Assembly: GCA_963677485.1 (NCBI GenBank)
Contig: OY781964.1
Coordinates: forward strand, 5,056,001-5,120,000
DNA length: 64,000 nucleotides
DNA from: Armatimonadota bacterium
GTDB taxonomy: Bacteria > Armatimonadota > HRBIN16
Direction of reading: 5' to 3'
Below the pieces are notes generated by a model, which worked only from the letters and a program-made list of their open reading frames with translations, searched no databases and had not been told where the DNA came from. Positions within the stretch are counted from its first letter, which is position 1, and each line of letters starts with the position of its first letter. A program made the position numbers and the translations under genes. Shown one piece after another: positions 33,866-49,144 of the stretch.

Positions 33866-34972
33866 TTACCCAACACCCGGTTCAGACAACACTGCCTTCA
33901 ATGCTGATACAAAGCCTTCGCATTGAGCCGCTGTGCCTGTAGTAATGCGAAGATATTCCGGCATTCCGAATACATCACCTGTACGCACAATGTATCCCTT
34001 CCTCATCAAAGCGTGGAAGACATCATTGGCTCTCGGACCTACACGCACCATGATACTGTTGCTGACACTCGGTATGGTTTCTAAGCCCATCATCGTGAAT
34101 TGCAGGTCCATATACTGAATCATCTTTTTGTTTTGTGCGAGCACCATTTCAATAAACTTCACATCATCAAGTGCCGCTAATGCCGCGGCCTGCGCTACAG
34201 AATTGACATTGAATGGTTCGCGGATTCTATCCAAAGCATTGATGATGGAGGCGTCGGCGATACCATACCCCACGCGTAGACCTGCCAGTCCATACGCCTT
34301 ACTGAATGTCCGAAGTACCATGACAGGCGCTCCAGCCTTCACAAGCGCGATGGAATCGGGATAGTCAGGGGCATCCTGGGCGTATTCCCAGTAGGCTTCA
34401 TCCATGACTAAAATGGCACCCTCTGGGAGTTTTCCTATGAGGTATTCTACATCACTCTGGGTAATGTAGGTTCCAGTGGGATTGTTAGGATTGGGGATGA
34501 TGACAAGGCGTGTCTTTTCTGTCAGCATCTCCGCCATCGCTTTCACATCGAATGTCCAGTTACGGGTAGGTACGCTCACGGTGGTGACATTAGCCAACCT
34601 TGCGGCTGTAGCATACTGCATAAAGGTAGGATGACCTGTCATCAATTCAGTGCCATCATGTAAGCATCCGACACCAAGATAGTAGATAATTTCATCCGAG
34701 CCGTTACCGAACATCAGCATATCGGCATCTATGTCGTGCTTATCTTTAAGTGCCTGCCGCAGCTTATAACAGTATCCGTCCGGGTATAAATTGAGGCTAT
34801 CCAATGACGCCTTAGCCGCCGATACACCTTTAGGTGATGGTCCAAATGGGTTTTCATTACTTGCCAGTTTCACAACTTCGGAAATGCCCAGTTCGCGTTT
34901 GACATCTTCAATTGGCTTGCCTGGGCTATACGGCTTCATGCCTAGTATATGCGGCTTCACAAAACGGCTCAT
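33866..34972 (-). CDS. hisC: Histidinol-phosphate aminotransferase
   Basis: KLASNENP, GNGSDE, NPNNPTG, DEAY and RTFSKAYGLAGLRVGY motifs. Confidence 0.93.
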   Translation of the reverse strand: MSRFVKPHILGMKPYSPGKPIEDVKRELGISEVVKLASNENPFGPSPKGVSAAKASLDSLNLYPDGYCYKLRQALKDKHDIDADMLMFGNGSDEIIYYLGVGCLHDGTELMTGHPTFMQYATAARLANVTTVSVPTRNWTFDVKAMAEMLTEKTRLVIIPNPNNPTGTYITQSDVEYLIGKLPEGAILVMDEAYWEYAQDAPDYPDSIALVKAGAPVMVLRTFSKAYGLAGLRVGYGIADASIINALDRIREPFNVNSVAQAAALAALDDVKFIEMVLAQNKKMIQYMDLQFTMMGLETIPSVSNSIMVRVGPRANDVFHALMRKGYIVRTGDVFGMPEYLRITTGTAAQCEGFVSALKAVLSEPGVG

Positions 34973-34997
34973 TATATTCCTCCGATTTCACTACCTG

Positions 34998-35041
34998 TAA
35001 AAAAGTACACGGGGGGCATACTCTACCCCCCGTGCCTTTTT
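34998..35041. terminator. Bidirectional Rho-independent terminator ending the transporter operon
   Basis: A-run, CACGGGGGG-CATACTCTA-CCCCCCGTG, T-run; ~40 nt after the ATPase stop. Confidence 0.85.
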
Positions 35042-35073
35042 ACACTCAGATATTCCTAAGATAGCGAGTAGAA

Positions 35074-35826
35074 TTACTCGCCCTCCATCGAACCTACGTT
35101 CAATTCGAGGTTAGCACGGTCCTCGACACGGTCGATGACACCGTCTCTAATCCACACGATACGGTCAGATACGTCCAGCATCTTCAAGTCGTGCGTTGCA
35201 GAGATAATGGTGACATTATTATCTTCGTTAAGCTCACGAAGAAGTTCGATAATCTCTTTACCTGTTTTACTGTCCAGGTTACCAGTTGGCTCGTCGGCCA
35301 GAATGATGGAAGGACTGTTAGCCAGTGCGCGAGCGCAAGCGACACGCTGCTGTTGTCCACCCGACATCTCATTGGGTTTATGATGTAATCTTTCGCCCAG
35401 ACCGACCTTCTTGAGCAGCTCAATGCCCTTGTCAATGGCATCGTCAGTGCTTAAACCGGCGAAGATCATTGGCAGGGTTACATTTTCAAGAGCAGTCATG
35501 TTTTTCAGAAGGTTGAATGTCTGGAAGATGTATCCAATAGTGCGGCAACGGAGGAACGCAAGCTCTTTAGCATCAAGCTGAGCCATGTCTACATCATTAA
35601 TAAACACACTACCGCTTGATGGTCGGTCAAGACCGCCAATCGCGTTAAAGAGTGTGGACTTACCAGAGCCAGAAGGACCCATGATGGACACATATTCGCC
35701 ACGCTTAACGTCGAGGTTCACTCCGTTCAGAGCGCGGAACGTCACCGTACCCATCGTGTATTCCTTGATGATATCTTTACAGCGAACTACATTTTCTACG
35801 CTGTCTATCTTATTATTAGACGCCAT
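35074..35826 (-). CDS. ABC transporter ATP-binding protein (LolD/MacB type)
   Basis: GPSGSGKST, IFQTFNL, MSGGQQQR, ILADEPTGNLD and ATHD motifs. Confidence 0.95.
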   Translation of the reverse strand: MASNNKIDSVENVVRCKDIIKEYTMGTVTFRALNGVNLDVKRGEYVSIMGPSGSGKSTLFNAIGGLDRPSSGSVFINDVDMAQLDAKELAFLRCRTIGYIFQTFNLLKNMTALENVTLPMIFAGLSTDDAIDKGIELLKKVGLGERLHHKPNEMSGGQQQRVACARALANSPSIILADEPTGNLDSKTGKEIIELLRELNEDNNVTIISATHDLKMLDVSDRIVWIRDGVIDRVEDRANLELNVGSMEGE

Positions 35827-35853
35827 ATTACAGAAGACCCCCGAATGATTCTG

Positions 35854-36483
35854 TTAGATTTCAACCCGAAGCGCGGCAGCGGCTGGCATTTTTGAAGCGA
35901 CATACGCCGGAGCGATCGTCGCTAATACCGAAAGAATAGTGCCTATTGCCAAAGCTAGTCCAAGCAATAATAACGATGATGTCATATCCATGTAGTGAAA
36001 GACCTTCATGCCCGTTGAGAACATGCGGATGACCACTACAGATCCGAAGCCAAGTATCCAGCCTAAGACTGACGACAGCAAACCTGTCATCATCGATTCG
36101 ATAAAGAAAAGTTGAACGATGAAACCATCATAAGCACCCAAACACTTCATGGTACCTATTTCTTGATATCGCTCAGTAACTGACATCAACATGGCATTAA
36201 TAATGCCAACGAGGCACACGATCAGGCTCATGGCGGTTAACCATGTCATCCTTACCTTTTCCGAAGCGTCTATAGCTCCGCCCGAATTGGCTTGGATCAT
36301 ACCTGCGGTCTTAACAGACACAAAGAAGGCGATACCAAGTACGGTACCTGCAGCAGTGATCACTGTTCGTCCAAACCTTTGACGGACACTTTGCAGTGCG
36401 ATATGCACAGCGGTCTTCAAAGGAAGCGAAAGAGATTCACTTTTTTTCGTATTAGTATTTCTACTTGTCATGCGTTGTTGCAT
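35854..36483 (-). CDS. Minimal FtsX/MacB-type ABC permease (4 TM, almost no extracytoplasmic domain)
   Basis: GIINAMLMSVTERYQEIGTMKCLGA and PAYVASKMPAAAALR motifs; true start may be ATG 36471. Confidence 0.88.
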   Translation of the reverse strand: MQQRMTSRNTNTKKSESLSLPLKTAVHIALQSVRQRFGRTVITAAGTVLGIAFFVSVKTAGMIQANSGGAIDASEKVRMTWLTAMSLIVCLVGIINAMLMSVTERYQEIGTMKCLGAYDGFIVQLFFIESMMTGLLSSVLGWILGFGSVVVIRMFSTGMKVFHYMDMTSSLLLLGLALAIGTILSVLATIAPAYVASKMPAAAALRVEI

Positions 36484-36883
36484 CCTCCAGCCGAAAACCG
36501 ATCAGTTTCCTCTCGGTCAGCATCTTCAGAAACATGCCCACAGACTTTTCCACTTCGATACGGCTCATTTTTGTGCGCACCATCATCCGTCGGATGATCG
36601 TATCCATTGTGGTTTCATCGTCAATGAAATTCCACACGCATGAGCCGATTTCATCTAATTGGATCTGCCTGAAAGGCGGTAACTTAAACATGCGCACAGC
36701 CCAGCCAAATGCTGTACCCTTCATGTTCACGGGTGCTTTAAGCAAAACATCGCCATCGACCTCAGTGATTTCCACCAAGGGATTGCGAACCGGTACCATT
36801 TTCAGAATATCACTACGATCATACTGCTGTTTATCTCGAAGCAGTGGTATTCTCTGCGTAAAGAACTGCTTTATAGAAGTCAA
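36461..36883 (-). CDS. Stand-alone PqqD-family / RiPP recognition element (RRE)-like protein
   Basis: LDEIGSCVWNFIDDETT...II...FLKMLTERKLI winged-helix pattern typical of PqqD/RRE; TTG start. Confidence 0.75.
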   Translation of the reverse strand: MTSIKQFFTQRIPLLRDKQQYDRSDILKMVPVRNPLVEITEVDGDVLLKAPVNMKGTAFGWAVRMFKLPPFRQIQLDEIGSCVWNFIDDETTMDTIIRRMMVRTKMSRIEVEKSVGMFLKMLTERKLIGFRLEDATTHDK

Positions 36884-36884
36884 T

Positions 36885-37784
36885 TTAGTGGCACTCCACT
36901 CTGCTCAGCAGAGCTTCGAATTGTTCTGGCTGCGATCGAAAGCATCTTACCGAAATAATCGCATTTGATTCGGGACAGTGCCAAGCCGCAAACCGATGAA
37001 CCATTGGATACCTTAGCAAGGCAAAAAGAACATCCCTCGCTAACGTTGAGCCAGGTTTGCTGCGAAACTGTCCAATATACGCCTGGTGGCCGTTGATCAG
37101 CCGATCCTCGGTGGTCACCTGGTTGTATACCTTCCAGTCAGCAAACTGATTGACCCATTCCCGCACGCTCCAGCGTTTCAGACTGACGTCAGCCAATCCC
37201 CATTTTTCGACAATCACTTCTTCGGCGAATTTCTTGAATGGCATCTTGAGATACCCGGACATCATCTTAGGCTTGTCAAGAAGTAACTTCTTAGGCACTG
37301 CAAACTGAACGCCCATTAGTCCCCATACGTCCCAGCCATCGTCTGAGTGATCCGTGATCCTGTTGACCAAATCTTTATATACTGACTGAACAGGGTCTTG
37401 ATGCCGCCCCACTACTTGCCCGATGATGACCCGTCCACAGCCAGGACAGATTTTGCCGAATCCATAGACAGTTCTGTCCGCGATATAACGGTAAGCCAGG
37501 ATTCCATTACCGTCAATTGGTTCGATACGGGCTGTGAACTTTTCCTTCTTTTTCTTGGCTAGTTTTTCAACATCCGTTAAATACGCATCGACACGCCTGG
37601 CCAGATTGTCTTTTTTTCGTGAAGGCATCCATCGAAGCTCTGCGATAATACTACCAGCAGAATCAACTCTCAGAAGCCCCTCTTTACGATTACCTTGAAA
37701 ACCAGCAAAACTCCAGTCTTCAGGTAAGGTAATTCCCACGCCTTGCCAGCCAATACGCTGGTTGCGATTCGACTTCGTATTCAA
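36885..37784 (-). CDS. Hypothetical protein with two similar halves
   Basis: 299 aa, soluble; IGWQGVGITLPEDW resembles VWGLMGVQFAVPKK; CPGC and HCPES at equivalent positions; ends in CH. Confidence 0.7.
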   Translation of the reverse strand: MNTKSNRNQRIGWQGVGITLPEDWSFAGFQGNRKEGLLRVDSAGSIIAELRWMPSRKKDNLARRVDAYLTDVEKLAKKKKEKFTARIEPIDGNGILAYRYIADRTVYGFGKICPGCGRVIIGQVVGRHQDPVQSVYKDLVNRITDHSDDGWDVWGLMGVQFAVPKKLLLDKPKMMSGYLKMPFKKFAEEVIVEKWGLADVSLKRWSVREWVNQFADWKVYNQVTTEDRLINGHQAYIGQFRSKPGSTLARDVLFALLRYPMVHRFAAWHCPESNAIISVRCFRSQPEQFEALLSRVECH

Positions 37785-37792
37785 ATGTTAAG

Positions 37793-38002
37793 TCAGGCCT
37801 TCTTGTCATCGGAGTGATCCGAGATAGCCGGCTTTTCATCGCCGTTAACCAGGTCGTTTGTCGCCTTCTTGAATTCCTTCAAACTCTCCCCAACAGCGTG
37901 AGCTAATTCTGGAAGCTTTTTTGCTCCAAACAGCACAAAGATGATGAGGATGATAGGCCACATCTCTGACCATGCAGGCATGTACATAAGAACCATTTCC
38001 AT
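37793..38002 (-). CDS. tatA: Twin-arginine translocase subunit TatA/TatE
   Basis: TM helix followed by LFGAKKLPELAHAVGESLKEFKKA; likely start 38002 behind GAGAGG. Confidence 0.9.
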   Translation of the reverse strand: MEMVLMYMPAWSEMWPIILIIFVLFGAKKLPELAHAVGESLKEFKKATNDLVNGDEKPAISDHSDDKKA

Positions 38003-38056
38003 CGGTGTGTTTCCTCTCGGGGGCGCAGATTGCAATGCACCCCCAATTTCATTATA

Positions 38057-40057
38057 TCAATATGGCAGGTAGGATACTGATCGGCCTATGATAGCTAAAG
38101 CTATCGAAGCCATACCAATTAGTCCCATACCACACGAGAAACCGGCTAGAAGAACTGGAGCCCACATTCGCCATGTTTCAGCACCGAACCGCTTGGCGAA
38201 ATACTTCTGCGAGAGAAGTGTTCCACATAGAAGCGGGATGGTATTGTGAGGCAGTGCACCTACTCCACCAATCAGTCCGTAGTAAGTCAGCATCGGCCAC
38301 TTAAGAACCGCAAACATTCCGTAAAGCGCTAAGCCGACGCCCGCACCGATACCAATCCTGTTCAAACTCAGGGCATCCATCAACCAGCTTCGTGAAGAGT
38401 TGCCTGGTAGGTTGATCTGCTGCCATAAGGCTGACATCTGAGCGTTGAGTGGCCAGAACCGTTGAGCGTATGGGTATTGCGCCGATGGTATTTGGCTGCT
38501 GTTCCAGAAGAAACTCCAGAACAAGAAGCTGAACAATGGCACCACCAGGAAGATCGCTAACTCCGCCCACACAATACTGGTGAACTTGGTACTGGTCAGC
38601 TCAATTTCGCGGAAGCGCTGGGCGTAACCGCCGTAGTCTCCTATCGGAATAGGAGCGTACCAGATATCCACCCTGTCGTATTTCGTGGCTAAGATGCTCG
38701 CTTCTTTTAAGAACGGGAAGGAGACACCGCTACCGGTAAGTCCTATCATACGAGCACTGATATAGCTGTTCAATGGCGTCCATAACAGACCAAACGCTAT
38801 GAGTATCCAAAGCGGGAATGCCGGAACCATCTTGTGACCAATGATGATCATCGCGATGGTTGCGATCAACCAAGCTCCGAGGGCATAGTATATGGTCTTC
38901 GGTGTATCACCGCGTCCGGCAGGAATTGGTGCAAAACTGCCCCGCATCGCTTTTCTTTTCGCGTTTTCGATGAGTGTTTTTGCCACCATGACGATACCAA
39001 TAGCAGCCACAGCTAACTGTAGACCGATACCAATCGCCATCCAGAAGTCGATATTCACCGTTAGTGAGCCTTGAATTGATGACATCCCAGGATACCAGTT
39101 AGGTAAAAACCCGGTCTGCTGCAGAATAGTGTTACCGAAAATCTGGCACGCGATACTCGATATCGCCTGTCCATACACAATCTGTGCAGGAATGACAAAT
39201 CCAGTGATAAGCACACCAAGATCACCAGTCAGACCAAACAACGCACCAGGAAGAATATGTTCGATATTGGGTACAAGATCGAAGAATGGAATGGGGATTA
39301 TGGTCATGGCTTTACCGAACAATACCGAAGTAAAGATCGGTACACCAAGGTAGATAACTCCATAAATCAATCCAATAGCGGCACCAGTGGAGAATACTTT
39401 CCATCTCCAACTGTCTTCATTACCTTTACCCGCTTCCGCCAGGGCTGTCGCGCCAGAAGCAGCAACAGGAGCCATAGGGAATGGCAGCTTTTCAATATCG
39501 CTTGTGACTCGGAACAGAGCATATCCCAGCCCCATCCACATCATACGACCTAGAACTTCGAAGGCTAACAACAACGCGATCGGAATGATCCAGTCCTTGT
39601 GCATAAAGCTTCTATGCAGGATCGCGGCACTATCGGGTTGAGGTACGGCCCATCTTGGTATCTGTTCTACGATGGGAGCCGCAGCCGGAGACTGGACAAA
39701 ATATTGCAACCAGACAAGGTTAGCAAAAGGTCCACCAGATAAACCTAATCCACCTACCATACCAGTAAGTGCAGAGGCGACATAGAATAATATATATATT
39801 TCCTGGCGCTTAAGTGGGGCGAAGCTTCTTCGAGCTACTTCGGCAAAAAGCACGATGGTGACCCATTGTGCCGCCGGCCCCAAACCCTGTCCTGCCACGA
39901 GACCCAAATAGATAGCTCCGGGCATCATGATCATGGCCACGAAGAGCGTACCAAATAGCGTTCTCGAAGAGAATCCCTCTTCGAATACTACTTTGTTCTC
40001 ATCGCTAGACTGCGCTTCAGAACGTTGCCGAGCTAATACCAGTTCGTCAACAGCCAA
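38057..40057 (-). CDS. Polytopic membrane transporter, OPT/oligopeptide-transporter-like
   Basis: ~16 hydrophobic segments; EKLPFPMAPV motif resembles the OPT E.L.FP loop; likely TTG start 40057 behind GGGAGG (track ORF starts at 40135). Confidence 0.65.
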   Translation of the reverse strand: MAVDELVLARQRSEAQSSDENKVVFEEGFSSRTLFGTLFVAMIMMPGAIYLGLVAGQGLGPAAQWVTIVLFAEVARRSFAPLKRQEIYILFYVASALTGMVGGLGLSGGPFANLVWLQYFVQSPAAAPIVEQIPRWAVPQPDSAAILHRSFMHKDWIIPIALLLAFEVLGRMMWMGLGYALFRVTSDIEKLPFPMAPVAASGATALAEAGKGNEDSWRWKVFSTGAAIGLIYGVIYLGVPIFTSVLFGKAMTIIPIPFFDLVPNIEHILPGALFGLTGDLGVLITGFVIPAQIVYGQAISSIACQIFGNTILQQTGFLPNWYPGMSSIQGSLTVNIDFWMAIGIGLQLAVAAIGIVMVAKTLIENAKRKAMRGSFAPIPAGRGDTPKTIYYALGAWLIATIAMIIIGHKMVPAFPLWILIAFGLLWTPLNSYISARMIGLTGSGVSFPFLKEASILATKYDRVDIWYAPIPIGDYGGYAQRFREIELTSTKFTSIVWAELAIFLVVPLFSFLFWSFFWNSSQIPSAQYPYAQRFWPLNAQMSALWQQINLPGNSSRSWLMDALSLNRIGIGAGVGLALYGMFAVLKWPMLTYYGLIGGVGALPHNTIPLLCGTLLSQKYFAKRFGAETWRMWAPVLLAGFSCGMGLIGMASIALAIIGRSVSYLPY

Positions 40058-40135
40058 CGGATTAACCTCCCTATCGCACCGTTTAGATTGCACCTGCCGG
40101 TGCTTACTCTTACGAGAAGTTGATGATATCTTCAT

Positions 40136-40174
40136 GTCTTAGGAGAGCGATACGAAATACCGCTCTCCTAAGAC
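40136..40174. other. Intra-operon perfect inverted repeat (14-bp stem)
   Basis: GTCTTAGGAGAGCG-N11-CGCTCTCCTAAGAC; no U-tract on the coding strand. Confidence 0.8.
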
Positions 40175-40187
40175 TATCGGGTTCAAT

Positions 40188-43100
40188 TTAAGTGTTCTGG
40201 GCTTCTACTGCTATATTCTCATCGAAATAGCGGTTTCGGTCCTCTGCACTTAACGTTCGCCAGATCAGGAACTGCTTTCGCAGAGTATTCATAAAGCGTC
40301 GGTTGACGCGTTTCCAGTTGGCGATGTCACCGCTTAACCGCGTAAGGGTTAAGGTCAGCGAATAGATGTCATCGGTGTCAGTCGGTTCTGCACTGATGAG
40401 AACTGTCTGGCTTACGCCTAAGTCAAACGGAGCCAGCCATGCAGTACAACCTATGGAATAAGCACGTCCGTGCTCTTTCATGTAGTTGTCTGTCGTGACA
40501 GACTGTGTGACAAAATCGCCCACAGAATAGTCTTCATAGGCACTCAACCACTCGCCCAGGAAGGAGCTTAAACCGGTAGCTTGAACTTGATTTACTGAGA
40601 ACGGCATGGGGATTACCCATTCGTCACCCTCAGGATCAGGTGTGTGCCAGTTACGATCCAAGGCAGGCGATGCCACCTCAGACGCCTTACGAGCAGGATA
40701 TATGGTTGATAGGAGAACTGTAGCCACTACCACTAAGGTGGAGACTACTGCCGACATCGACGAGAAGTTGAGATATAAGCCTTCGATCTTGAGTAAGACA
40801 ATGGCTTTTGCACTCAACTGCGCGACAAAGTAGCCCGTAACCGAACCAACGATCGCATAGACCAGTGATTCTGCAAAGAACAACAGACCGATGTGTGTCG
40901 GTGATAGACCGAGTGAACTGAAGATGTGAATCTCCTTCACACGTTCGAACACCGAGCTGAGCATGGTCTGAAGACAGATCATGGCAGCGATCAGGATCGG
41001 GATGATCACGAACTCAATACCACGCCCAGAAGTCGCAGCCAGTGTAGAGAACCGCCATATCTGCGGACCCTGACCTGAATAGATATTCAAGCCGAGGCGG
41101 GGCATTAATTTATCAAGAACACCCTTTACCTCCTTCTTATTAGCAAAGGAGATAGCGATAGACCGGATCTCCCCACCCTGGTTCATCAGAGTGCGGTACG
41201 GTAGATAGAAGACACTATCCGGTTCAAGGTGAACGTATTCACGGAACCCAGATTCTTGACCGCCTCCACTACCACCGCCGGCTTTGTTACCCATTTTGTT
41301 CATGAGCAGGAAGTCGACAGGGGTTAAAGGTTCCTGGTCAAGGTCTGTTACTGTCTTGAACTTGCCACTGTCGAGGATTCCGATGACGTTGTACTCCATA
41401 CCGTTGAAACGGACAGAGACTTTCCCGACATCTTCAACTCCAACACGCAGAGATTCAGCAACACCGCTAGGAAGTATGGTTACATAGCGGTCACCATCTT
41501 GGAACCAGCGGCCCGCTTTCAGGGCACGTTGTGGCCGCGTGACTTGAGCTTCATCTGGAGTCAGGCCGACAATTGACTTCACATCATATTGTCTGTCACC
41601 TTTGCGCACAGCGAATGAGCTCTGCTCTCCATAGGCAACACCATAGAACCAAGCCCTCGGAGCTACCGCGCGGTCGCGGAACTCGTCGCTTAGCAGACGG
41701 TATGCCGGGTCTTGCAGAGGTTCCCAAAGTGCCGTTCTAATCATGATTCCGTTGTAGTCCGCAACACCCGGTGCACGCACCTGGTTGAAGCGGAGCACAT
41801 TCACGATTGAAGTAAAGGATAGCACGATGAACGTCAGCATGATCAGCGTGATGCTGGTCAATATAGTCCGAGCTTTTCGCCTGCGCATGTTTGACACGCC
41901 CAGGTTAAACGCCGCAAATGCGACACTAACTCGTCCAATATCGGCCCGGTGAACGCCACTCATCTGTTTGTTGATCTGTTTGAGTTGTTCCTCAAACTTG
42001 CCCATAATCATGGCCGTAACCAATCCAGATAGAGCCAGCATGACGAAGGCCAAGAAGACCACCGCAAGGTTACTGACTAACTGGAAGGCAGGGTGTATCC
42101 GACTGAACAAGAGGAACACAACAACGAAGATACCAAGGGCGGCCATCAACTGGTTGCGCAGATTTGGGAAGCCGAAGAACAACCTCTCCATAAAGAACGC
42201 GAATGGCAACAGTAATGCCATGTAGAAGATGACTCCTCTAACCACGTCATTCGCCGTCGCTTGCACGTCTGGATAGGCTCTGGCTTCATAACCCCAGGCT
42301 GCTCGACTATAGATGTCGAACTTGGCATAGTCTTTGGCGACGAGAGCAGCACGTGCCATGTCAAGTGATTTCTTTGACATCGCATGAAGCTGTTCGAGCC
42401 CCTCGTTGATAATTCGGAATTTCCGGAGTTTGGTCATGCGGTACTCATCAAGAGTCCACATGTCTTCAGCTACACGGAAAGCAGTATTAGTGATGACACC
42501 ACCAGCCGCGAAGTTATCGCGGTCACCGTAGTTCTTATTCTTCTGACCGAAACCAACCTCTTTAGCCACACCCTGAACGCGGTAGCCAATACCTTCCGGG
42601 TCTTGCTTAGTGGAGTTGATCATCACAAAGCGTGTGGCACCAGGCCCCACACCCATGATCAGCTTAATGCGGGAACCAGGCTGTGAAAAGACAACAGCCA
42701 CGTCCTCAACATAAGAGGTCATCAAGTAGTCTTGCTGGGTTGCTAAAGCCCAACCATACATACGTGGAGTACCATTGGTTTCGGCATCCAGCACGTTCAT
42801 GGTTGTCAAAGCACGCAAGGCTTGCTGATCGACCAAGTCAAAGAGCGAAGTAGGCACGCAGTTGAACACTACGATACGGCTTGTCTTTTGTCCTGTTGTG
42901 ACAGGAAAATCAACAGGATATTCTACGGCTCCCTGAGCACCTTGGTCGGGTGCAAAGTCGATGTTACCGGTGGTTCGATCGACTCGGTATGCTGCAACCG
43001 ATGTAGGGCGGTTCCATCCATAAGCTGTGACAGGTGCCACACCTGGGAACCGGTACTCGGCCTTATCATTTACGATCTGTATCAGGTTACCGCGCACACC

Positions 43101-44774
43101 TGCAAATGTCTTCGTGGCGTGTCGAACGACAGCTAGACTGTCCAGAACCGGTTCTTTGGGGATGAAGCTCTTTTTAGGTTCAAAACGGACAACCTGCCCG
43201 CTGATCGTAGAAAAGCCTCCCTGCAAGCCCATTCTCTGGAAGTTACCGGGTTCATCAATTGCGAAGTGAGGAAGTGCGGGGTCTTGAACATTGTTAGGAT
43301 CATTAAATACATGCCACAGAATACCTGACAGTAGTTTGGTCTGCATAGCCACGTTTGAGTAGTTCACCCTGTTCGGGGTGTCAAACGGCGTGTCTACCAT
43401 AGGTCGACTGTCATCGGTGGTGCAGAATGTAATCCCATTCGCCCCTGATAGTGTGACTAGCTCCGCATCAAAAGCATACTTACCGGCGAGGTAGTTCCGC
43501 CAGATTTTACCGTCAACGGGGTTAACACCATCGGCAAACATACGTGATCCGGCCAAACCCAGTGCGGCTAGAACCTTATCGGAATTTTCACGACATATTC
43601 GAGAGAGGTCAGAAAATCTATTCTGGACATCTTCGCGCATGTCATAGAAATAGCCTTTATAGAACAGTCCAACTTGCTTGTTTCGGCTGGAGATATCCAA
43701 ACCGGCCCACAAGTAGATGTCCATCAAGTCTTTTTGCTTAGGTTTGATGCCGACCGCTTTCAGCATAGACATGAACAGCTTCTGGCCCACGTTTGGCCTC
43801 TCGAGGCGGTTCATGTGTCTATCCATCCACTGTCGGATGCCTTCAAGGGAGGTAAAGTGTCCGCCTGTAGCGACGAACATGATGCTTCGCTTTGGCTTTT
43901 CTTTGGCGTATGTACGCGCAAGCTCAAGCATGGAAGCTATGCCGCAGGCACTTTCAGCACCCGGCGCGATAGCTGGAACCACTGACATCGAATCGAAATA
44001 AGAAGACAGAACAATCACTTGCTTGGACATCTTAGGGTCAGAACCCTTTATCCAGGCGATGACGTTCCTGCCCTCTTTTTTCTGCCATTGCATGGAGCAG
44101 GACAGCTTGCCAGGGAGCTCTTGGTTAGAAGCACAAAGTGCCATCAAAGGCACAGCATCACTCTTGCGTATGAAGAAACGAGGCACATTTACCGGAATTC
44201 CGATAAACTTCGCTTCAGATTCCCCACGCATCGTGTCGTCTGGCTCAACGAAAACCACCGCCTTCGCACCTAAGCGGGGAGCATTCAACCATTCGGTTCC
44301 TGAGTTATAGTTAACGAGGACGATACTACCCTGAACACGCTTACCGCTGAAGTTCGGGAGTTTCCCATCACCCACATAAATAACGGAACCACTCACACCT
44401 TCAGGAGGAAGTTGTGATGTTCGAACGAGGTTAGGCCACAGAGCATTTAAGTGAATAGATTTTCCATTCACTTGAAGCACTGATCCCTGGTCAACAGGAA
44501 CGCTGACAGGGAAAGACTCCGTAGTGATGTCTGTAAGCCCGATGGTACGGAATTGATCGGCTACCCAACCGGCCGCCTTGTCGGCACCGGGGTAACCACA
44601 AACGCGGCTGTCAATAGCAGACAAACTATTAACTGTTGTACGGATACGAGTTGTATCAACACTGTTCGCGAGGCGCATATAGTCTGGGCTGGTTACAGGT
44701 GCTTGTGCGTAAGCGATCGTAGAAACAGCCGAAACTAAGAGCATCCAACGAAGCGCCTTCCGGATAATCATCAT
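40188..44774 (-). CDS. Giant fusion: signal peptide + M28/PA peptidase-like domain + extra TM helices + MacB/FtsX permease
   Basis: Signal peptide ending AYA-Q; SRVCGYPG, PA-like insert, VLSSYFDS..PGAES..GIASMLELAR; NMRRRKARTILT, SVFERVKEIHIFSSLGL and YPARKAS FtsX motifs; likely start 44774 behind GAGGAG (track start 44807). Confidence 0.85.
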   Translation of the reverse strand: MMIIRKALRWMLLVSAVSTIAYAQAPVTSPDYMRLANSVDTTRIRTTVNSLSAIDSRVCGYPGADKAAGWVADQFRTIGLTDITTESFPVSVPVDQGSVLQVNGKSIHLNALWPNLVRTSQLPPEGVSGSVIYVGDGKLPNFSGKRVQGSIVLVNYNSGTEWLNAPRLGAKAVVFVEPDDTMRGESEAKFIGIPVNVPRFFIRKSDAVPLMALCASNQELPGKLSCSMQWQKKEGRNVIAWIKGSDPKMSKQVIVLSSYFDSMSVVPAIAPGAESACGIASMLELARTYAKEKPKRSIMFVATGGHFTSLEGIRQWMDRHMNRLERPNVGQKLFMSMLKAVGIKPKQKDLMDIYLWAGLDISSRNKQVGLFYKGYFYDMREDVQNRFSDLSRICRENSDKVLAALGLAGSRMFADGVNPVDGKIWRNYLAGKYAFDAELVTLSGANGITFCTTDDSRPMVDTPFDTPNRVNYSNVAMQTKLLSGILWHVFNDPNNVQDPALPHFAIDEPGNFQRMGLQGGFSTISGQVVRFEPKKSFIPKEPVLDSLAVVRHATKTFAGVRGNLIQIVNDKAEYRFPGVAPVTAYGWNRPTSVAAYRVDRTTGNIDFAPDQGAQGAVEYPVDFPVTTGQKTSRIVVFNCVPTSLFDLVDQQALRALTTMNVLDAETNGTPRMYGWALATQQDYLMTSYVEDVAVVFSQPGSRIKLIMGVGPGATRFVMINSTKQDPEGIGYRVQGVAKEVGFGQKNKNYGDRDNFAAGGVITNTAFRVAEDMWTLDEYRMTKLRKFRIINEGLEQLHAMSKKSLDMARAALVAKDYAKFDIYSRAAWGYEARAYPDVQATANDVVRGVIFYMALLLPFAFFMERLFFGFPNLRNQLMAALGIFVVVFLLFSRIHPAFQLVSNLAVVFLAFVMLALSGLVTAMIMGKFEEQLKQINKQMSGVHRADIGRVSVAFAAFNLGVSNMRRRKARTILTSITLIMLTFIVLSFTSIVNVLRFNQVRAPGVADYNGIMIRTALWEPLQDPAYRLLSDEFRDRAVAPRAWFYGVAYGEQSSFAVRKGDRQYDVKSIVGLTPDEAQVTRPQRALKAGRWFQDGDRYVTILPSGVAESLRVGVEDVGKVSVRFNGMEYNVIGILDSGKFKTVTDLDQEPLTPVDFLLMNKMGNKAGGGSGGGQESGFREYVHLEPDSVFYLPYRTLMNQGGEIRSIAISFANKKEVKGVLDKLMPRLGLNIYSGQGPQIWRFSTLAATSGRGIEFVIIPILIAAMICLQTMLSSVFERVKEIHIFSSLGLSPTHIGLLFFAESLVYAIVGSVTGYFVAQLSAKAIVLLKIEGLYLNFSSMSAVVSTLVVVATVLLSTIYPARKASEVASPALDRNWHTPDPEGDEWVIPMPFSVNQVQATGLSSFLGEWLSAYEDYSVGDFVTQSVTTDNYMKEHGRAYSIGCTAWLAPFDLGVSQTVLISAEPTDTDDIYSLTLTLTRLSGDIANWKRVNRRFMNTLRKQFLIWRTLSAEDRNRYFDENIAVEAQNT

Positions 44775-44947
44775 TCGCAAACCGCTCCTCAGTGTGGTTC
44801 TTAGCATTTGGCGCAGATGCGCCTTAATGAATAATAACAGAAAGTAGGCGTGAAGTGGTAATGCCTACTCTATCTCGAAATCGGGTATAATTTGTTACCC
44901 ATGAGGGTTTCTGAGCTTGAGGGCTCCCCTCGCCGAACCTGCAGTGT

Positions 44948-45634
44948 GTGAACCACTCTTTATACGCTAACCTAAAATCTCGGAGAATGCCAGTGAGTTT
45001 TCAAAAACTCTGTTATCTGATCTATTCGGACATGTTCCGATACTATGGAAAACAGCCGTTTTATCGCAACCTCCATACGATGATCTGGACGTTCGGAGCT
45101 ATTCATAGCTTCTGGTTTCGCTTGGGTCAGTATTTTTGGTCCAAATCTGCAGTAGCCAGGCCACTGTATTACATCGCTCGTTATATACAGCGAATCTATA
45201 TGGTTCGATTTGGTTTTGAGGTATCACCCGAAACCATCATAGGACCAGGATTGTATATCGGACATATCGGAGGCATCACTATCAGCCGCTTTGCAAAGAT
45301 CGGCCGAAACTGCAATATATCGCAGGGAGTGACCATTGGAGCAACACAGAGGGGCGACAAAGCCGGAGCCCCCACCATCGGCGATAATGTATACATCGGG
45401 CCGGGAGCCCGTGTAATAGGTGCGATCGTGATTGGTAACAATGTGGCCATTGGTGCCAATGCCGTCGTAAGTAAGGATCTGCCCGATTTTTCAGTTGCTG
45501 TCGGATTACCCGCACGGTCTATCGGCACGGAAGGTTCTGTCGGCTATATCAACAACACGGAATACGATCAGCATTTGGGAGCCTGGGCCAGGAAATTCGC
45601 TCAGGTAGTATCAACACCTGACAAAGTGTTATAA
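44948..45634 (+). CDS. Hexapeptide-repeat O-acetyltransferase (serine acetyltransferase-like, probably polysaccharide-related)
   Basis: IGPGLYIGH, IGRNCNISQGVTIG, PTIGDNVYIGPGA and IGANAVV motifs; start may be ATG 44987. Confidence 0.85.
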   Translation: MNHSLYANLKSRRMPVSFQKLCYLIYSDMFRYYGKQPFYRNLHTMIWTFGAIHSFWFRLGQYFWSKSAVARPLYYIARYIQRIYMVRFGFEVSPETIIGPGLYIGHIGGITISRFAKIGRNCNISQGVTIGATQRGDKAGAPTIGDNVYIGPGARVIGAIVIGNNVAIGANAVVSKDLPDFSVAVGLPARSIGTEGSVGYINNTEYDQHLGAWARKFAQVVSTPDKVL

Positions 45635-45635
45635 T
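45626..45635 (+). promoter_or_regulatory. Extended -10 promoter for yebC
   Basis: TGtTATAAT ~40 nt upstream of the GGAGG RBS and ATG. Confidence 0.6.
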
Positions 45636-45671
45636 CTTCAAGGAAATATCACGGAGGCACATTAACAATCT

Positions 45672-46412
45672 ATGTCTGGTCACTCCAAATGGCATAATAT
45701 CCGCTTGCGTAAAGGCAAGCAGGATGCCGAGCGCGGAAAACTGTTTACACGAGTTGCTCGCGAGATCATCGTAGCAGCTAAAGAGGGTGGCGGTAACCCC
45801 GACGCTAATCTGCGACTTAAAATGGCAATGCAAAAGGCCCGCGATGTGCATATGCCTCAAGATAATATCAAGCGCGCCATCATGCGCGGCACAGGTGAGC
45901 TTGACGGCTCCAACTATGATGAGGTCACCTACGAAGGTTACGGCCCCGCAGGTGTAGCTATACTCGTAGAGTGCATGACTGATAACAAAAACCGAACAGT
46001 TTCGGAAATCCGGCATGCTTTCACCAAGGCTGGCGGCAGTTTGGGTGAGATGGGCTGTGTCGGCTGGATGTTTACGCCCCAGGGCATGATCATGGTACCG
46101 CTGTCGGCTGGCGACGAAGAAACCATCATGACCGCAGCTTTAGAAGCGGGTGCTGAGGACTTTGTGGCTACCGATGATGGGTATGAAATCACGACCGATC
46201 AGGGCGGCTTAAACACTGTCACCGAAGCACTAAAGGCAGCAGGAATACCAGTTGAGAACTCCGAACCCACTATGACACCCAGTTCTACGGTGGCCATTGA
46301 AGGCAAAGAGGCTCAACAGGTTTTGAGGTTACTTGATATGCTGGATGAACTTGACGATGTTCAAGCAGTTCACTCCAACGCAGACATACCCGATGACGAG
46401 TATGAGGGGTAG
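45672..46412 (+). CDS. yebC: YebC/PmpR family protein
   Basis: MSGHSKWHNI, YEGYGPAG, TDNKNRT and DDVQAVHSN motifs. Confidence 0.96.
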   Translation: MSGHSKWHNIRLRKGKQDAERGKLFTRVAREIIVAAKEGGGNPDANLRLKMAMQKARDVHMPQDNIKRAIMRGTGELDGSNYDEVTYEGYGPAGVAILVECMTDNKNRTVSEIRHAFTKAGGSLGEMGCVGWMFTPQGMIMVPLSAGDEETIMTAALEAGAEDFVATDDGYEITTDQGGLNTVTEALKAAGIPVENSEPTMTPSSTVAIEGKEAQQVLRLLDMLDELDDVQAVHSNADIPDDEYEG

Positions 46413-46419
46413 CTTCAGC

Positions 46420-46974
46420 TTGCAGCAACAAGATACCATACTGGCCCGCCTGAAAGCGACAAGCTTCGGGCGGGCTGCCGTTTTCTTTGACCGTGATGGC
46501 GTCTTGAATGAGGAAGTTGGATATCTCCACTCCCCCAGCAGATTTATCTGGCGCAAAGGAGCCGAACGCTGCATCCACGCCGTTAATCGGGCAGGGTTGC
46601 TCGCTATCATCATCACCAACCAAGGTGGGATCGCACGCTCCATGTATACGGAACACGATGTGCGCCAACTCCACTTTTGGATGCAAACCCAGCTTCAGCC
46701 GCATCACGCTCATCTTGATGCATTCTATTATTGTCCTCATCACGACGAAGGTGACATTCCGCATCTCGCCATAGATTGTCCAAACCGTAAACCAAATCCA
46801 GGAATGCTGTTGAAGGCCGCTAACCAATGGGGTATCAACTTACCAAACAGCATCATGCTGGGTGATAAACGGCGTGACATGGAGGCGGCATCTAATGCCG
46901 GAGTGTTGGGTTTAATGGTCGATGACCATACATTAGATGATCTCGCTTCGTTGCTTGAGCAGCACCACGAATGA
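46420..46974 (+). CDS. gmhB: D-glycero-D-manno-heptose-1,7-bisphosphate phosphatase (HAD IIIA)
   Basis: FFDRDGVLN, TNQGGI, CPHH...CPNRKPNPGM and GDKRRD motifs; start uncertain (46402 ATG or 46420 TTG). Confidence 0.88.
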   Translation: MQQQDTILARLKATSFGRAAVFFDRDGVLNEEVGYLHSPSRFIWRKGAERCIHAVNRAGLLAIIITNQGGIARSMYTEHDVRQLHFWMQTQLQPHHAHLDAFYYCPHHDEGDIPHLAIDCPNRKPNPGMLLKAANQWGINLPNSIMLGDKRRDMEAASNAGVLGLMVDDHTLDDLASLLEQHHE

Positions 46975-48422
46975 GCCAGGTTGAGAACCGGTACAAAAGT
47001 GTAGTTTCAGGCCTCAAGTGGCTTACGTTGGCCTCTATTGGCGGCCGTATCATCACATTTGGGATGGGCATCATCCTTGCCCGTTATTACTTAACCCCTG
47101 CCCAGTTTGGTTTGGTCAACATGGCAGCGATCAGCGTGATGGCATTTGACCTGATCCGCGACTTTGGACTTGTAGAAGCGCTCCTCAAGCGTGAACAACT
47201 GAACGATGAAGCCGCAGATACTGCATTCTGGTTATTGACAGTTTTCGCATCAATGGCAGCCGCGGTAGTGATTATACTGGCTCCGCATATTGCCCAAGTA
47301 TTCCATGAACCCGCTCTGGCCAGTTATCTTTATGTCATGTGTCTGTCCTTGGTTACCAACGGGCTCGCGGCTGTGCCATTAGCCCTTCTTCAAAAGCAAG
47401 ACAGATGGAAGGCCTATGCCTCGGCAGATGCGGTCTTCGCCATTGCTGGTTCGGCCACAGTTCTGCTTTTAGCGATCATGGGGGCTCGCGAGTGGTCACT
47501 GGTGATTGGAATAGTGCTAAAGGGGATCATCCAAACATCGTATGCCTGGTGGCTGATAAAATGGCATCCAAAACTGAAGTTTTCGGTTAAAACAGCCAAA
47601 GAGATGCTCGGTTTCGGTAAATGGGTCACGGCGGTCCGGTTCCCTGACCTCTTCATGTATTTCGCGGACAACGCCTATTTGGGCCGATATGCCGGCAAAC
47701 AGAATCTGGGTTATTACTCTCAGCCTTATAACTGGATACAACAGCCGCTCACTCTATTTGTCAGCCAGGTTGGTAAGGCTCTATACCCCAACCTTGCGAA
47801 AAGCCATGATGACCTGGAACGAAGGGACCTGTTTTTAAAAAGCTATCAACTACTGTGTTGGCTCGTAGTTCCGTTGTATGCGTTTCTGGGATGTCATGCT
47901 CAACTATTTGTAGATGTCATCTACGGTCCAAAATGGGCGCCGTCAGGCAAGATACTGGTGTGGCTGTGTGCAGCAGCGACCGTAAGGGCGTTAACAGCCG
48001 ATGGTCTACAGGGTTACTTCTGGGCTAGCAACCGCGGCAAGCAATATGCCTGGCCGATATGGGTGTCCATTCTATTTATTTTTGGAGCCATGGTTTACAG
48101 CCAAGGAAAGTGGGATGGCCGACAGATCGCCATGCTGTTTACGGCCGGCATCAGCCTTCGGGGGATTATCAACCTGATGTTGTTAAGCACGAAATCGGTG
48201 AAGTTGACAGGTGCCACAGTACAGAAGCTGATGGTTGCATTCTGGCCATGTGCTTTATTGGCTTGGAGCTGTCATTATCTCGTTACACTTTATATCGCTA
48301 ACATGACACTACAGCTTATATCATCAATGATGTTGTATGGTGCAGGAATATTACTACTTTACGTAGGAATAACAAAGAAATTGGTCAAACTGTCTGTATC
48401 AAGACAGGATACTAATAGTTAA
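46971..48422 (+). CDS. Polysaccharide flippase (Wzx/WzxC, PST family)
   Basis: ILARYYLTPAQFGL, DFGL..AL, DNAYLGRY.G...LGYY motifs; ~12-14 TM helices. Confidence 0.88.
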   Translation: MSQVENRYKSVVSGLKWLTLASIGGRIITFGMGIILARYYLTPAQFGLVNMAAISVMAFDLIRDFGLVEALLKREQLNDEAADTAFWLLTVFASMAAAVVIILAPHIAQVFHEPALASYLYVMCLSLVTNGLAAVPLALLQKQDRWKAYASADAVFAIAGSATVLLLAIMGAREWSLVIGIVLKGIIQTSYAWWLIKWHPKLKFSVKTAKEMLGFGKWVTAVRFPDLFMYFADNAYLGRYAGKQNLGYYSQPYNWIQQPLTLFVSQVGKALYPNLAKSHDDLERRDLFLKSYQLLCWLVVPLYAFLGCHAQLFVDVIYGPKWAPSGKILVWLCAAATVRALTADGLQGYFWASNRGKQYAWPIWVSILFIFGAMVYSQGKWDGRQIAMLFTAGISLRGIINLMLLSTKSVKLTGATVQKLMVAFWPCALLAWSCHYLVTLYIANMTLQLISSMMLYGAGILLLYVGITKKLVKLSVSRQDTNS

Positions 48423-49144
48423 GCCTTCGCGAAATCGCCTATAATGATTTGCCTGGCGTGACAAAAAGGCCACATATTATATATCCTGCCAATGTAACAG
48501 GCCAGTATGTAAAGTGTCTTTCGCTGCCAAAAATATCTATATACCCCGCTAATTAAGCTCAACACCTCTACCCTAAATCCATTTTGTGTTGCCAGACGTC
48601 TCAACGTTTTGACGCTGTTCATTCGGTAATAAGTCTTGCTGTTGTCCCAGTCAGCTTTACGCAACAAAGCCCCAACCACAGCTCTGTGTGTCTGATGGTT
48701 GGTCAGTGCAGAGATCACCATTGCAGGATTATATATATTGGGAGTCCAGAATAGAAAATGGCCACCCGGCTTGAGCACCCGTCGAATCTCACTTAATGCG
48801 TGATCAGGGTTCCTAAAATGCTCGAGCACCCATGCTGCTATAACTATATCTACAGAGTTGTCATCTAACGGTATGTCCTCTACTGAGGCCACATGGAATT
48901 CGTCAATGTGCGGGTTGCTTTTTTTTTCCGGGTCAATGTCGATACCTACTACATGCACTCCAGATACATCCTGGCGTACTTTGTTGCTAACCCAACATTC
49001 AGCCCCACACCCTGCTTCTAGTATCACCGGGTGTTCTTTACCAGTCAAGTGTTTTCGGATTTGATTTTCGGCCAGGTCATGCCACTTAATATGGCCATAC
49101 GGCCTAACATTGTCCTCAATTTCGTTAACCCAGTAGCGTGTCAT
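48419..49144 (-). CDS. Class I SAM-dependent methyltransferase
   Basis: ILEAGCG, GIDID, LEH...RVLKPGG motifs. Confidence 0.9.
   Translation of the reverse strand: MTRYWVNEIEDNVRPYGHIKWHDLAENQIRKHLTGKEHPVILEAGCGAECWVSNKVRQDVSGVHVVGIDIDPEKKSNPHIDEFHVASVEDIPLDDNSVDIVIAAWVLEHFRNPDHALSEIRRVLKPGGHFLFWTPNIYNPAMVISALTNHQTHRAVVGALLRKADWDNSKTYYRMNSVKTLRRLATQNGFRVEVLSLISGVYRYFWQRKTLYILACYIGRIYNMWPFCHARQIIIGDFAKA

Follow-up and report, generated by a model that had tools for sequence, protein, structure and literature searches.

A conserved six-gene block of Armatimonadota and the type VII ABC envelope machine that it probably encodes

Seven genes lying head to tail in the genome of an Armatimonadota bacterium (GTDB lineage Bacteria; Armatimonadota; HRBIN16) raise the question of whether they encode one envelope machine and, if so, what that machine does. 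The genes fill positions 35074-44807 of a stretch of 64,000 nucleotides (hereafter the window), which corresponds to positions 5,056,001-5,120,000 of a 5.22 Mb genome assembled as a single contig (GenBank assembly GCA_963677485.1, contig OY781964.1). All seven are read on the minus strand and are called A to G here: (A) a giant permease with a peptidase-like head, (B) a polytopic membrane protein, (C) a TatA protein, (D) and (E) two soluble cytoplasmic proteins, (F) a small FtsX-type permease and (G) an ATP-binding cassette (ABC) ATPase. A first-pass annotation of the sequence had described the block as an envelope machine that combines three transport systems with a peptide-binding fold. The block very probably encodes a type VII (MacB/FtsX-type) ABC envelope machine that is conserved but uncharacterised, with a core of six genes and a role for which capture and import of a peptide-like ligand is tentatively proposed.

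The evidence for a single system begins with gene order. One genome per species was scanned with an alignment of B; relatives of B were confirmed in 578 stretches, and the best 80 loci were kept. Counting only loci with enough flank, the gene immediately upstream of B is A in 47 of 61, D-E-F-G follow colinearly downstream of B in 36 of 58, and the complete series A-B-D-E-F-G is colinear in 31 of 50. In 17 loci from relatives, A-B-(C)-D-E-F-G is seen again, whole or in part. Since this order recurs, the possibility left open by the first-pass annotation, that the arrangement is peculiar to one genome, falls away, and its proposal of one conserved multi-component envelope system holds for A, B, D, E, F and G, which are a conserved six-gene core. 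More than 1000 database proteins match A, the named ones nearly all from Armatimonadota, and 33 of 41 related genomes encode A at full or nearly full length. Counted together across 41 genomes, A and B are both found in 32 and both absent from 8, with A alone in a single genome that is 80% complete; B, itself present in 170 of the 201 genomes of the phylum, is strongly supported as an obligate genomic partner of A.

The core is rearranged or split in some metagenome-assembled genomes (MAGs), whose taxonomic labels can be wrong. A Desantisbacteria-labelled MAG has the order D-E-F-G..A-B, a WS1-labelled one F-G-A-B..D, a Zipacnadia-labelled one F-G-A-B and a Hydrogenedentota-labelled one A-B-F-G; A and B stand by themselves in Abditibacteriaceae- and Brocadiia-labelled loci, and B alone in Fimbriimonadia-labelled loci. 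The missing parts of incomplete loci lie elsewhere in the same genome, as was found for A in 5/5 and for D in 8/8 such genomes. At the relocated D loci, tblastn places E and F behind D in two of five, and F and G in a third. Some genomes with B alone carry several full-length paralogues of A: three in G205 (locus L109) and at least three in G204 (L100). Beyond lineage-level synteny, no further conserved neighbour gene emerges across the 80 loci, the largest family, a membrane protein of ~277 aa, reaching 13 of them.

The genes are tightly packed. Seven co-oriented open reading frames (ORFs) follow each other, in A to G order, at distances of 52, 21, 8 and 1 nt, a 23-nt overlap (E/F) and 27 nt. 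On the 5' side of A is a divergent intergenic spacer of 140 nt (44808..44947), which precedes a hexapeptide-transferase gene and is presumed to hold the operon promoter; a consensus promoter scan of its minus strand found no sigma-70-like site. On the other side, an intrinsic-terminator-like hairpin followed by a T-run (35007..35035, minus strand; a 12-bp stem with 8 G-C pairs) marks the operon end. In all of this the first-pass description, including a terminator near 35020, was accurate.

Transcript libraries agree with this layout. Nineteen runs recorded as RNA, all of them bioreactor metatranscriptomes, contain 5-28% of the words sampled from window positions 34000-46500. Contigs from the best four of the 19 runs were mapped: 75 aligned, 32 of them listed, with an identity to the window of 95-99% for 67 of the 75 and of at least 99% for the other 8. 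They derive from a close relative of the source organism, present in the RNA libraries of those reactors. Their cover spans ~34,950-44,950, with little beyond 44,842 in the four runs, and is small or nil over a segment of B (38587-39420) in some of them; one contig extends from within A to 44949. No cover at all was found over 34,000-34,833 in 4/4 runs, a weak hint for the terminator. Listed contigs bridge five of the six junctions (A/B, C/D, D/E, E/F and F/G) with at least 31 nt on each side, and none among the 32 listed of 75 bridges B/C, a gap that, like the thin cover within B, carries no firm weight. The cover is compatible with an operon, and the separate transcription that the first-pass annotation had considered is not what these contigs, spanning the block, suggest.

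The kind of machine is indicated by gene A (40188..44807), whose product of 1539 aa has an elaborate layout. A signal-like N-terminus, recognised by eye, is followed by an ectodomain of ~820 aa (residues ~36-854), three extra transmembrane (TM) helices (855-934), a MacB-type TM1 (986-1004), a periplasmic core domain between TM1 and TM2 (1005-1255; window 41043..41795), TM2-4 (1256-1362) and a cytoplasmic alpha/beta C-terminal domain (~1396-1539). The module comprising TM2-4 (residues 1256-1376; 40680..41042) matches the Pfam family FtsX (PF02687) over residues 1266-1376 with 51.6 bits (cut-off 25.5), and Peptidase_M28 is matched with 41 bits, over profile positions 1-78 of 193 only. An AlphaFold2 (AF2) model of residues 340-1539 has a mean predicted local distance difference test score (pLDDT) of 78.6 and a predicted template modelling score (pTM) of 0.69. 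Foldseek ranks YbbP among its top matches, along with MacB, LolC/E, YtrF and HrtB, whose E values run from 1e-11 to 1e-6; these matches of the 1200-residue model fall on the ABC-permease part only, not on the beta-rich region 533-739 or the cytoplasmic C-terminal domain. The periplasmic core resembles the periplasmic region of MacB (3ftj; template modelling score, TMt, 0.60) and the extracellular domain of YknZ (5f9q; TMt 0.63). The PA and MacB_PCD domains that had been named in A are borne out by such fold comparison and by the precomputed Pfam matches of its homologues, most of which carry PF12704, although the A of the window itself matches neither family at E <= 0.1.

The head of A (residues 49-353; 43749..44663) is PA/M28-like. 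It aligns with the PA and M28 domains of the aminopeptidase 2ek8 (phmmer, E 4.8e-11) and, more weakly, with Nicalin, an inactive relative of these enzymes; the transferrin receptor is another inactive relative of the PA-domain M28 aminopeptidases. Unlike the M28 aminopeptidases, the head is fused to an ABC permease and its metal site is altered: in the alignment to 2ek8, HHDS becomes YFDS, DD becomes ES and EE becomes HF. Among 43 family members from several lineages, position 270, where M28 has a His ligand, is Tyr in 37 and Phe in 6; Asp272 is invariant (43/43); position 285, canonically Asp, is Glu in 37 and Asp in 6; the place of the catalytic Glu is taken by His317 in all 43; and position 318, a Glu ligand in M28, is Phe in 32, His in 5 and Tyr in 2. 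No member of the 43 has His at 270 or Glu at 317 or 318, a placement that covers the M28 Zn ligands (His, Asp, Glu, Asp/Glu and His) except the last two. The replacements are strongly conserved, and the site is thus re-tooled rather than decayed, which is why the head is seen as a receptor for a ligand.

The partner permease, F (35854..36483; 209 aa), has the same FtsX module (PF02687, 60.8 bits; cut-off 25.5) in four TM segments (37-55, 77-95, 122-140 and 172-190). Hydropathy leaves a TM1-TM2 loop of ~20 residues, so that F has no ectodomain. It is strongly supported that A and F are two unequal FtsX-type half-permeases, of which only A has a periplasmic core domain, and this inequality suggests that, as LolC, LolE and two LolD subunits do, A and F are likely to form an asymmetric permease pair with two copies of G. 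G (35074..35826; 250 aa) scores 117.6 bits against ABC_tran, its translation contains the Walker A, signature and Walker B motifs, and it would be the matching ATPase of the LolD/MacB type, an assignment with strong support from its family matches. Its best NCBIfam models are LolD, the MacB nucleotide-binding domain, DarD, DevA and FtsE (E 1e-72 to 1e-60), all under cut-off.

None of the three subunits can be equated with a known system at the level of equivalog models: their scores fall far short of the NCBIfam cut-offs for LolC/E, LolD, MacB and FtsX. The lolCE model TIGR02212 gives 17.2 bits for A and 37.4 for F against a cut-off of 362, LolD TIGR02211 gives 241.3 bits for G against 307.75, and FtsX models give 28-35 bits for F against 225-255. 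The genome holds other proteins of this superfamily. Its only match to FtsX_ECD (PF18075, 67.5 bits) is a 292-aa frame at another locus, which is the canonical FtsX, and besides it there are three ordinary FtsX/MacB-type permeases of ~400 aa. Also outside the window (G000:C1:4904976-4906733) is a 1157-aa frame with two FtsX modules in a YbbP/ADOP-like layout.

The second membrane component is B (38057..40135), a protein of 692 aa with at least 12 hydrophobic segments by hydropathy. Its true start may lie downstream of the listed ATG, because homologues begin ~25 residues later. No Pfam or NCBIfam family matches B, and the likeness to the OPT/YSL transporters (PF03169) consists of its size, its many TM segments, its neighbours in the ESM Atlas and sporadic OPT matches of homologues. 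In the Atlas, three clusters come nearest to B, with scores of 0.98; two of them are automatically named peptide transporters, and in two of the three PF03169 is present in 15% and 33% of members. OPT is the sole recurrent Pfam family among B homologues, reached by 1 of 14 in one set and by 5 of 69 in another (a count that leaves out 11 of the 80 loci, L034-L044), with a best E of 6.2e-10. B is probably a distant member of the OPT superfamily, set apart by forming a conserved group of its own. The evidence for the label 'OPT-like' of the first-pass annotation is remote, and the window's B does not match the model itself.

Two rivals to an uptake role bear on these membrane parts. One is a system for sensing or detoxifying antimicrobial peptides like BceAB or YtrEF, in which the ectodomain would catch a hostile peptide, leaving the motor to free the target or to signal. 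BceAB and YtrEF are indeed among the Foldseek matches of the A model, and several A homologues carry the JGI label 'ABC-type antimicrobial peptide transport system permease subunit', which is a generic one. However, no two-component system or other regulator is linked to the cluster in the window flanks or the 80 loci, and a phylum-wide, mostly single-copy system with an OPT-like partner is unlike a resistance module. The MacB family review (PMC5985334), moreover, gives BceB as a single chain of ten TM helices that contains two FtsX modules, unlike the A+F pair. Such a role is therefore very improbable.

The other is cell wall remodelling in the manner of FtsEX with EnvC, PcsB or RipC: the dead head would activate or scaffold a peptidoglycan hydrolase, and B would recycle the released peptides. 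The near-universal presence of the system in the phylum would suit such a task, and FtsEX-type systems use catalytically dead peptidase-like partners, going by the abstracts of two papers (PMC7668044, PMC10214136). Yet the canonical FtsX with its FtsX_ECD domain is encoded separately, no hydrolase gene recurs near the cluster in the 80 loci, and some of the clusters near B in the Atlas have the archaeal Thermoproteota as their most frequent phylum. Wall remodelling is improbable on this evidence, if less so than peptide sensing.

On the cytoplasmic side the core has two proteins, D and E, both without TM segments by hydropathy. D (36885..37784; 299 aa), the one gene missing from the first-pass list of parts, belongs to no Pfam or NCBIfam family; most of the other domains on that list were recovered with Pfam and NCBIfam (M28 in part, FtsX, TatA, PqqD, ABC_tran). 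Its AF2 model (mean pLDDT 88.6, pTM 0.82) is a tandem of two PsbP/Mog1-like alpha/beta sandwiches, for which the best Foldseek matches are the two-domain immunity proteins of type VI secretion systems, TplEi/Tli4 (E 5e-5), and PsbP (TMt 0.5-0.59), at 8-15% identity. Unlike these, D is without sequence similarity to either, is cytoplasmic and has a cluster of Cys and His residues: in a 14-sequence alignment C113, C270, C298 and H299, the C-terminal residue, never vary, and C116 hardly does. The cluster may be a metal site, and to our knowledge nothing like it has been described for PsbP/Mog1-fold or Tli4/TplEi proteins. A profile of D found only chance-level rows of ribosomal eL8 among PDB sequences (E 0.09-0.9). 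An exhaustive profile search gathers 1759 clusters at 50% identity; a word-limited homologue search gave 7 relatives. The taxonomic range of D is taken from Atlas rows. None of the 30 nearest Atlas clusters has a Pfam family, and the best three are commonest in Armatimonadota, Poribacteria and Gemmatimonadota.

E (36461..36883; 140 aa) by contrast has a recognisable fold. Its C-terminal ~65 residues match PqqD (PF05402) with 34.6 bits (cut-off 23.4), behind a conserved N-terminal extension of ~70 aa, and a profile of 29 homologues matches the B1-type chaperones of lasso peptide synthesis 9x90_B (E 3.9e-8) and TbiB1 (5v1u, E 4.4e-8) as well as PqqD (3g2b, E 1.7e-5). By these matches E has a true PqqD fold, that of the RiPP recognition element (RRE), RiPP standing for ribosomally synthesised and post-translationally modified peptide. 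A difference from PqqD and lasso B1 proteins is that E has neither a partner enzyme (the radical SAM protein PqqE, a B2 protease or a cyclase) nor a precursor, has an added N-terminal part and is linked to an ABC machine. It is strongly supported that D and E are binding proteins, soluble and cytoplasmic, and neither shows signs of an enzymatic fold. A prediction of the D+E complex hints that the two may bind each other: its score is 0.40 (best of three controls 0.00). Of 80 solved complexes, 58 attain this value, as do 2 of 110 mismatched pairs, and predictions in its range (up to 0.60) are wrong more often than right. Contact agreement between runs is at least 64%, and partner pLDDT at least 67.

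An RRE-fold protein beside an ABC system invites the idea of a cluster for RiPP biosynthesis and export. This can hardly be right. The first-pass annotation had seen no radical SAM, YcaO, LanB/LanM, lasso cyclase or precursor, and neither Pfam nor NCBIfam finds such a modifying-enzyme family among the seven products; the spacers between the ORFs are too short to house a hidden peptide gene. Across the 80 loci no precursor-like, modifying or hydrolase gene recurs beside the cluster, and no leader-peptide partner for E is apparent there or in the operon. E reaches 29.2 bits against the NCBIfam model lasso_PqqD, whose cut-off is 80, the fold of D is of a non-enzymatic binding type, and phylum-wide conservation is that of a housekeeping system. 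The RRE fold recognised earlier is thus real, and the leader-peptide handling attached to it finds no partner in these loci.

There remains C (37793..38035; 80 aa), whose identity as TatA is clear from TatA_B_E (PF02416, 61.7 bits; cut-off 21) and TIGR01411 (57.7 bits; cut-off 53.9). The ORF opens at TTG; translation probably begins at one of several ATGs within residues 12-19. If C were part of the machine, all seven proteins would merge three transport systems. C is co-oriented, 21 and 8 nt from its neighbours, and an RNA-library contig bridges the C/D junction. The link between TatA and D is even kept in genomes where A and B lie elsewhere: in three of three Fimbriimonadia-labelled genomes the only detected TatA-family gene is directly upstream of D (G201:C12:15927-16079, G202:C12:11712-11849, G203:C5:218810-218947), with F, G and a probable E behind D. 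The link thus persists across ~50% protein divergence for no obvious reason. However, TatA stands between B and D in only 7 of the 80 loci, all close relatives of the window. In a survey of TatA-family genes it does so in 6/6 genomes of the window's family. In the other 65 genomes of that survey these genes, wherever the place of the cluster is known, are carried on different contigs or are separated from it by no less than 52 kb, and they usually form a tandem pair.

The source genome has two TatA-family genes and one TatC, the latter far from the operon, and C must therefore also serve general Tat export. In a FastTree phylogeny of the 80 B proteins (support values uninspected) the window's family is sister to the Fimbriimonadia-labelled loci. 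That the TatA-D linkage arose twice was rejected, as this sisterhood makes one ancestral arrangement enough; it looks like one old order kept in one clade. C is concluded to be the pore subunit of the general Tat system, transcribed together with D-G as a clade-specific passenger and not part of the core. Since TatA is not a conserved part, the earlier count of three transport systems in one machine is too high, and a seven-subunit machine is very unlikely.

The slot between B and D holds other genes elsewhere. In Chthonomonadales-labelled loci it is taken by the ~277-aa membrane protein (L043:11980-12810 and 12 further loci), and a Pfam scan of one member (L043) gave no family. A WS1-labelled locus has two genes there with an N-terminal motif that, judged by eye, is of the prepilin type. 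Occupants of this slot were also noted at L098:12160-12756 and L106:12012-13922. The A-B interval also varies: in eight Chthonomonadales-labelled loci (for example L043:8494-9645) it holds a gene for a 384-aa protein with DUF2092 and an AhpC/TSA-type redoxin domain.

The genes that flank the operon belong to ordinary metabolism: an aminotransferase, a type II dehydroquinase and an M24 peptidase on one side, and YebC, a HAD hydrolase and a polysaccharide flippase on the other. The flippase gene, of the Polysacc_synt_3 type (46971-48422), lies a few kb upstream of the operon with a convergent methyltransferase gene (48419-49144), and this pair (46971-49144) is not conserved beside the operon in other loci.

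How does the core compare with machines of known function? Its permease and ATPase parts are shown to be members of the MacB/FtsX superfamily, which makes the whole a type VII ABC machine of new composition. With MacAB-TolC, LolCDE, FtsEX, YbbAP-TesA, YtrEF, HrtBA and BceAB it shares the four-TM FtsX modules, a separately encoded ATPase of the LolD/MacB/FtsE type and, in A, a Porter/Sabre-like periplasmic domain between TM1 and TM2; the two unequal permeases recall LolC and LolE. It differs from all of these in an F without any ectodomain, in what A adds (an ectodomain of ~820 residues, PA/M28-like and rich in beta structure, three further TM helices and a cytoplasmic C-terminal domain), and in its partnership with an OPT-like permease and two cytoplasmic binders. 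Nor is a MacA-like adaptor, a LolA-like carrier or a hydrolase partner linked to it in the 80 loci. A literature search, whose scope did not include supplementary files, found no description of this architecture, and the available part of the MacB review (PMC5985334) contains no occurrence of 'peptidase', 'M28' or 'OPT'. The first-pass view that no characterised system has this architecture is therefore upheld, and no characterised transporter was matched.

What, then, might the machine do? The explanation favoured here starts from the other type VII systems. The two G subunits would hydrolyse ATP and thereby move the ectodomain of the A-F heterodimer, rather than pump a substrate through it. 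Outside the membrane the dead aminopeptidase head of A would hold a peptide-like ligand, perhaps by the N-terminus of the peptide, without cutting it, and the ATP-driven motion would hand the ligand to B for proton-driven uptake. D and E, on the cytoplasmic face, would bind the incoming peptide or gate the ATPase. As a mechanism, capture and import of a peptide-like ligand is possible by analogy and is put forward tentatively; architecture and mechanism taken together, the favoured explanation may be given a probability of roughly 0.4. More doubtful is a wider form of the idea, in which the type VII motor would act as a powered, membrane-anchored receptor: the dead head would bind peptide N-termini and load an OPT-type permease, the RRE-PsbP pair would read the cargo or gate the motor, and the whole would be a phylum-wide housekeeping system.

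Several points weigh against import. The function is read wholly from folds and neighbourhood, and the A-B contact, the substrate and the direction of transport are predictions only. For B, the window protein has no match to Pfam OPT at E <= 1, its profile finds no match among PDB sequences at E <= 10, and hhalign of that profile against the single weak OPT-scoring protein from 21 related genomes gives a probability of 0.15. The RNA contigs come from a related strain, and they neither prove a single transcript nor rule out carry-over of DNA. Type VII ABC systems of known role carry out export, extraction or control of hydrolases, not uptake; a cytoplasmic RRE protein with a chaperone-like D would suit export at least as naturally as import; and the TatA linkage in one clade, a small point, also faces outward.

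The last three points lead to the main rival, a route of export or surface assembly. E and D would collect a ribosomal peptide or small protein encoded elsewhere, B or the Tat system would translocate it, and A-F-G would expel it, extract it or mount it on the cell surface, in the way that MacB and LolCDE treat their substrates. The profile of E matches leader-binding proteins, the fold of D is common to PsbP/Mog1-type binding proteins and immunity proteins, TatA immediately precedes D both in the window's family and in the Fimbriimonadia-labelled genomes, and the type VII systems of known role act outward, as far as is known. On the other side, the 80 loci offer no recurring precursor-like or modifying gene that could supply the cargo, characterised OPT transporters are importers, and the TatA linkage is limited to one clade and absent from the other families sampled. 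Export is thus unlikely, though it deserves more credit than wall remodelling, and capture and import remains the favoured explanation.

Known type VII ABC systems are few, and each has a key job in the envelope, be it efflux, lipoprotein sorting, division or lipid extraction. Another class, spread through a whole phylum, would extend the known roles of the type VII motor; this one joins a fused pseudo-peptidase to an obligate OPT-like partner and uses an RRE outside natural-product synthesis, and it would give a first function to three unannotated families, B, D and the E subtype. The six-gene set is among the most conserved unexplained gene sets of the Armatimonadota, a phylum with very few studied proteins, and the system is directly testable in its few cultured members.

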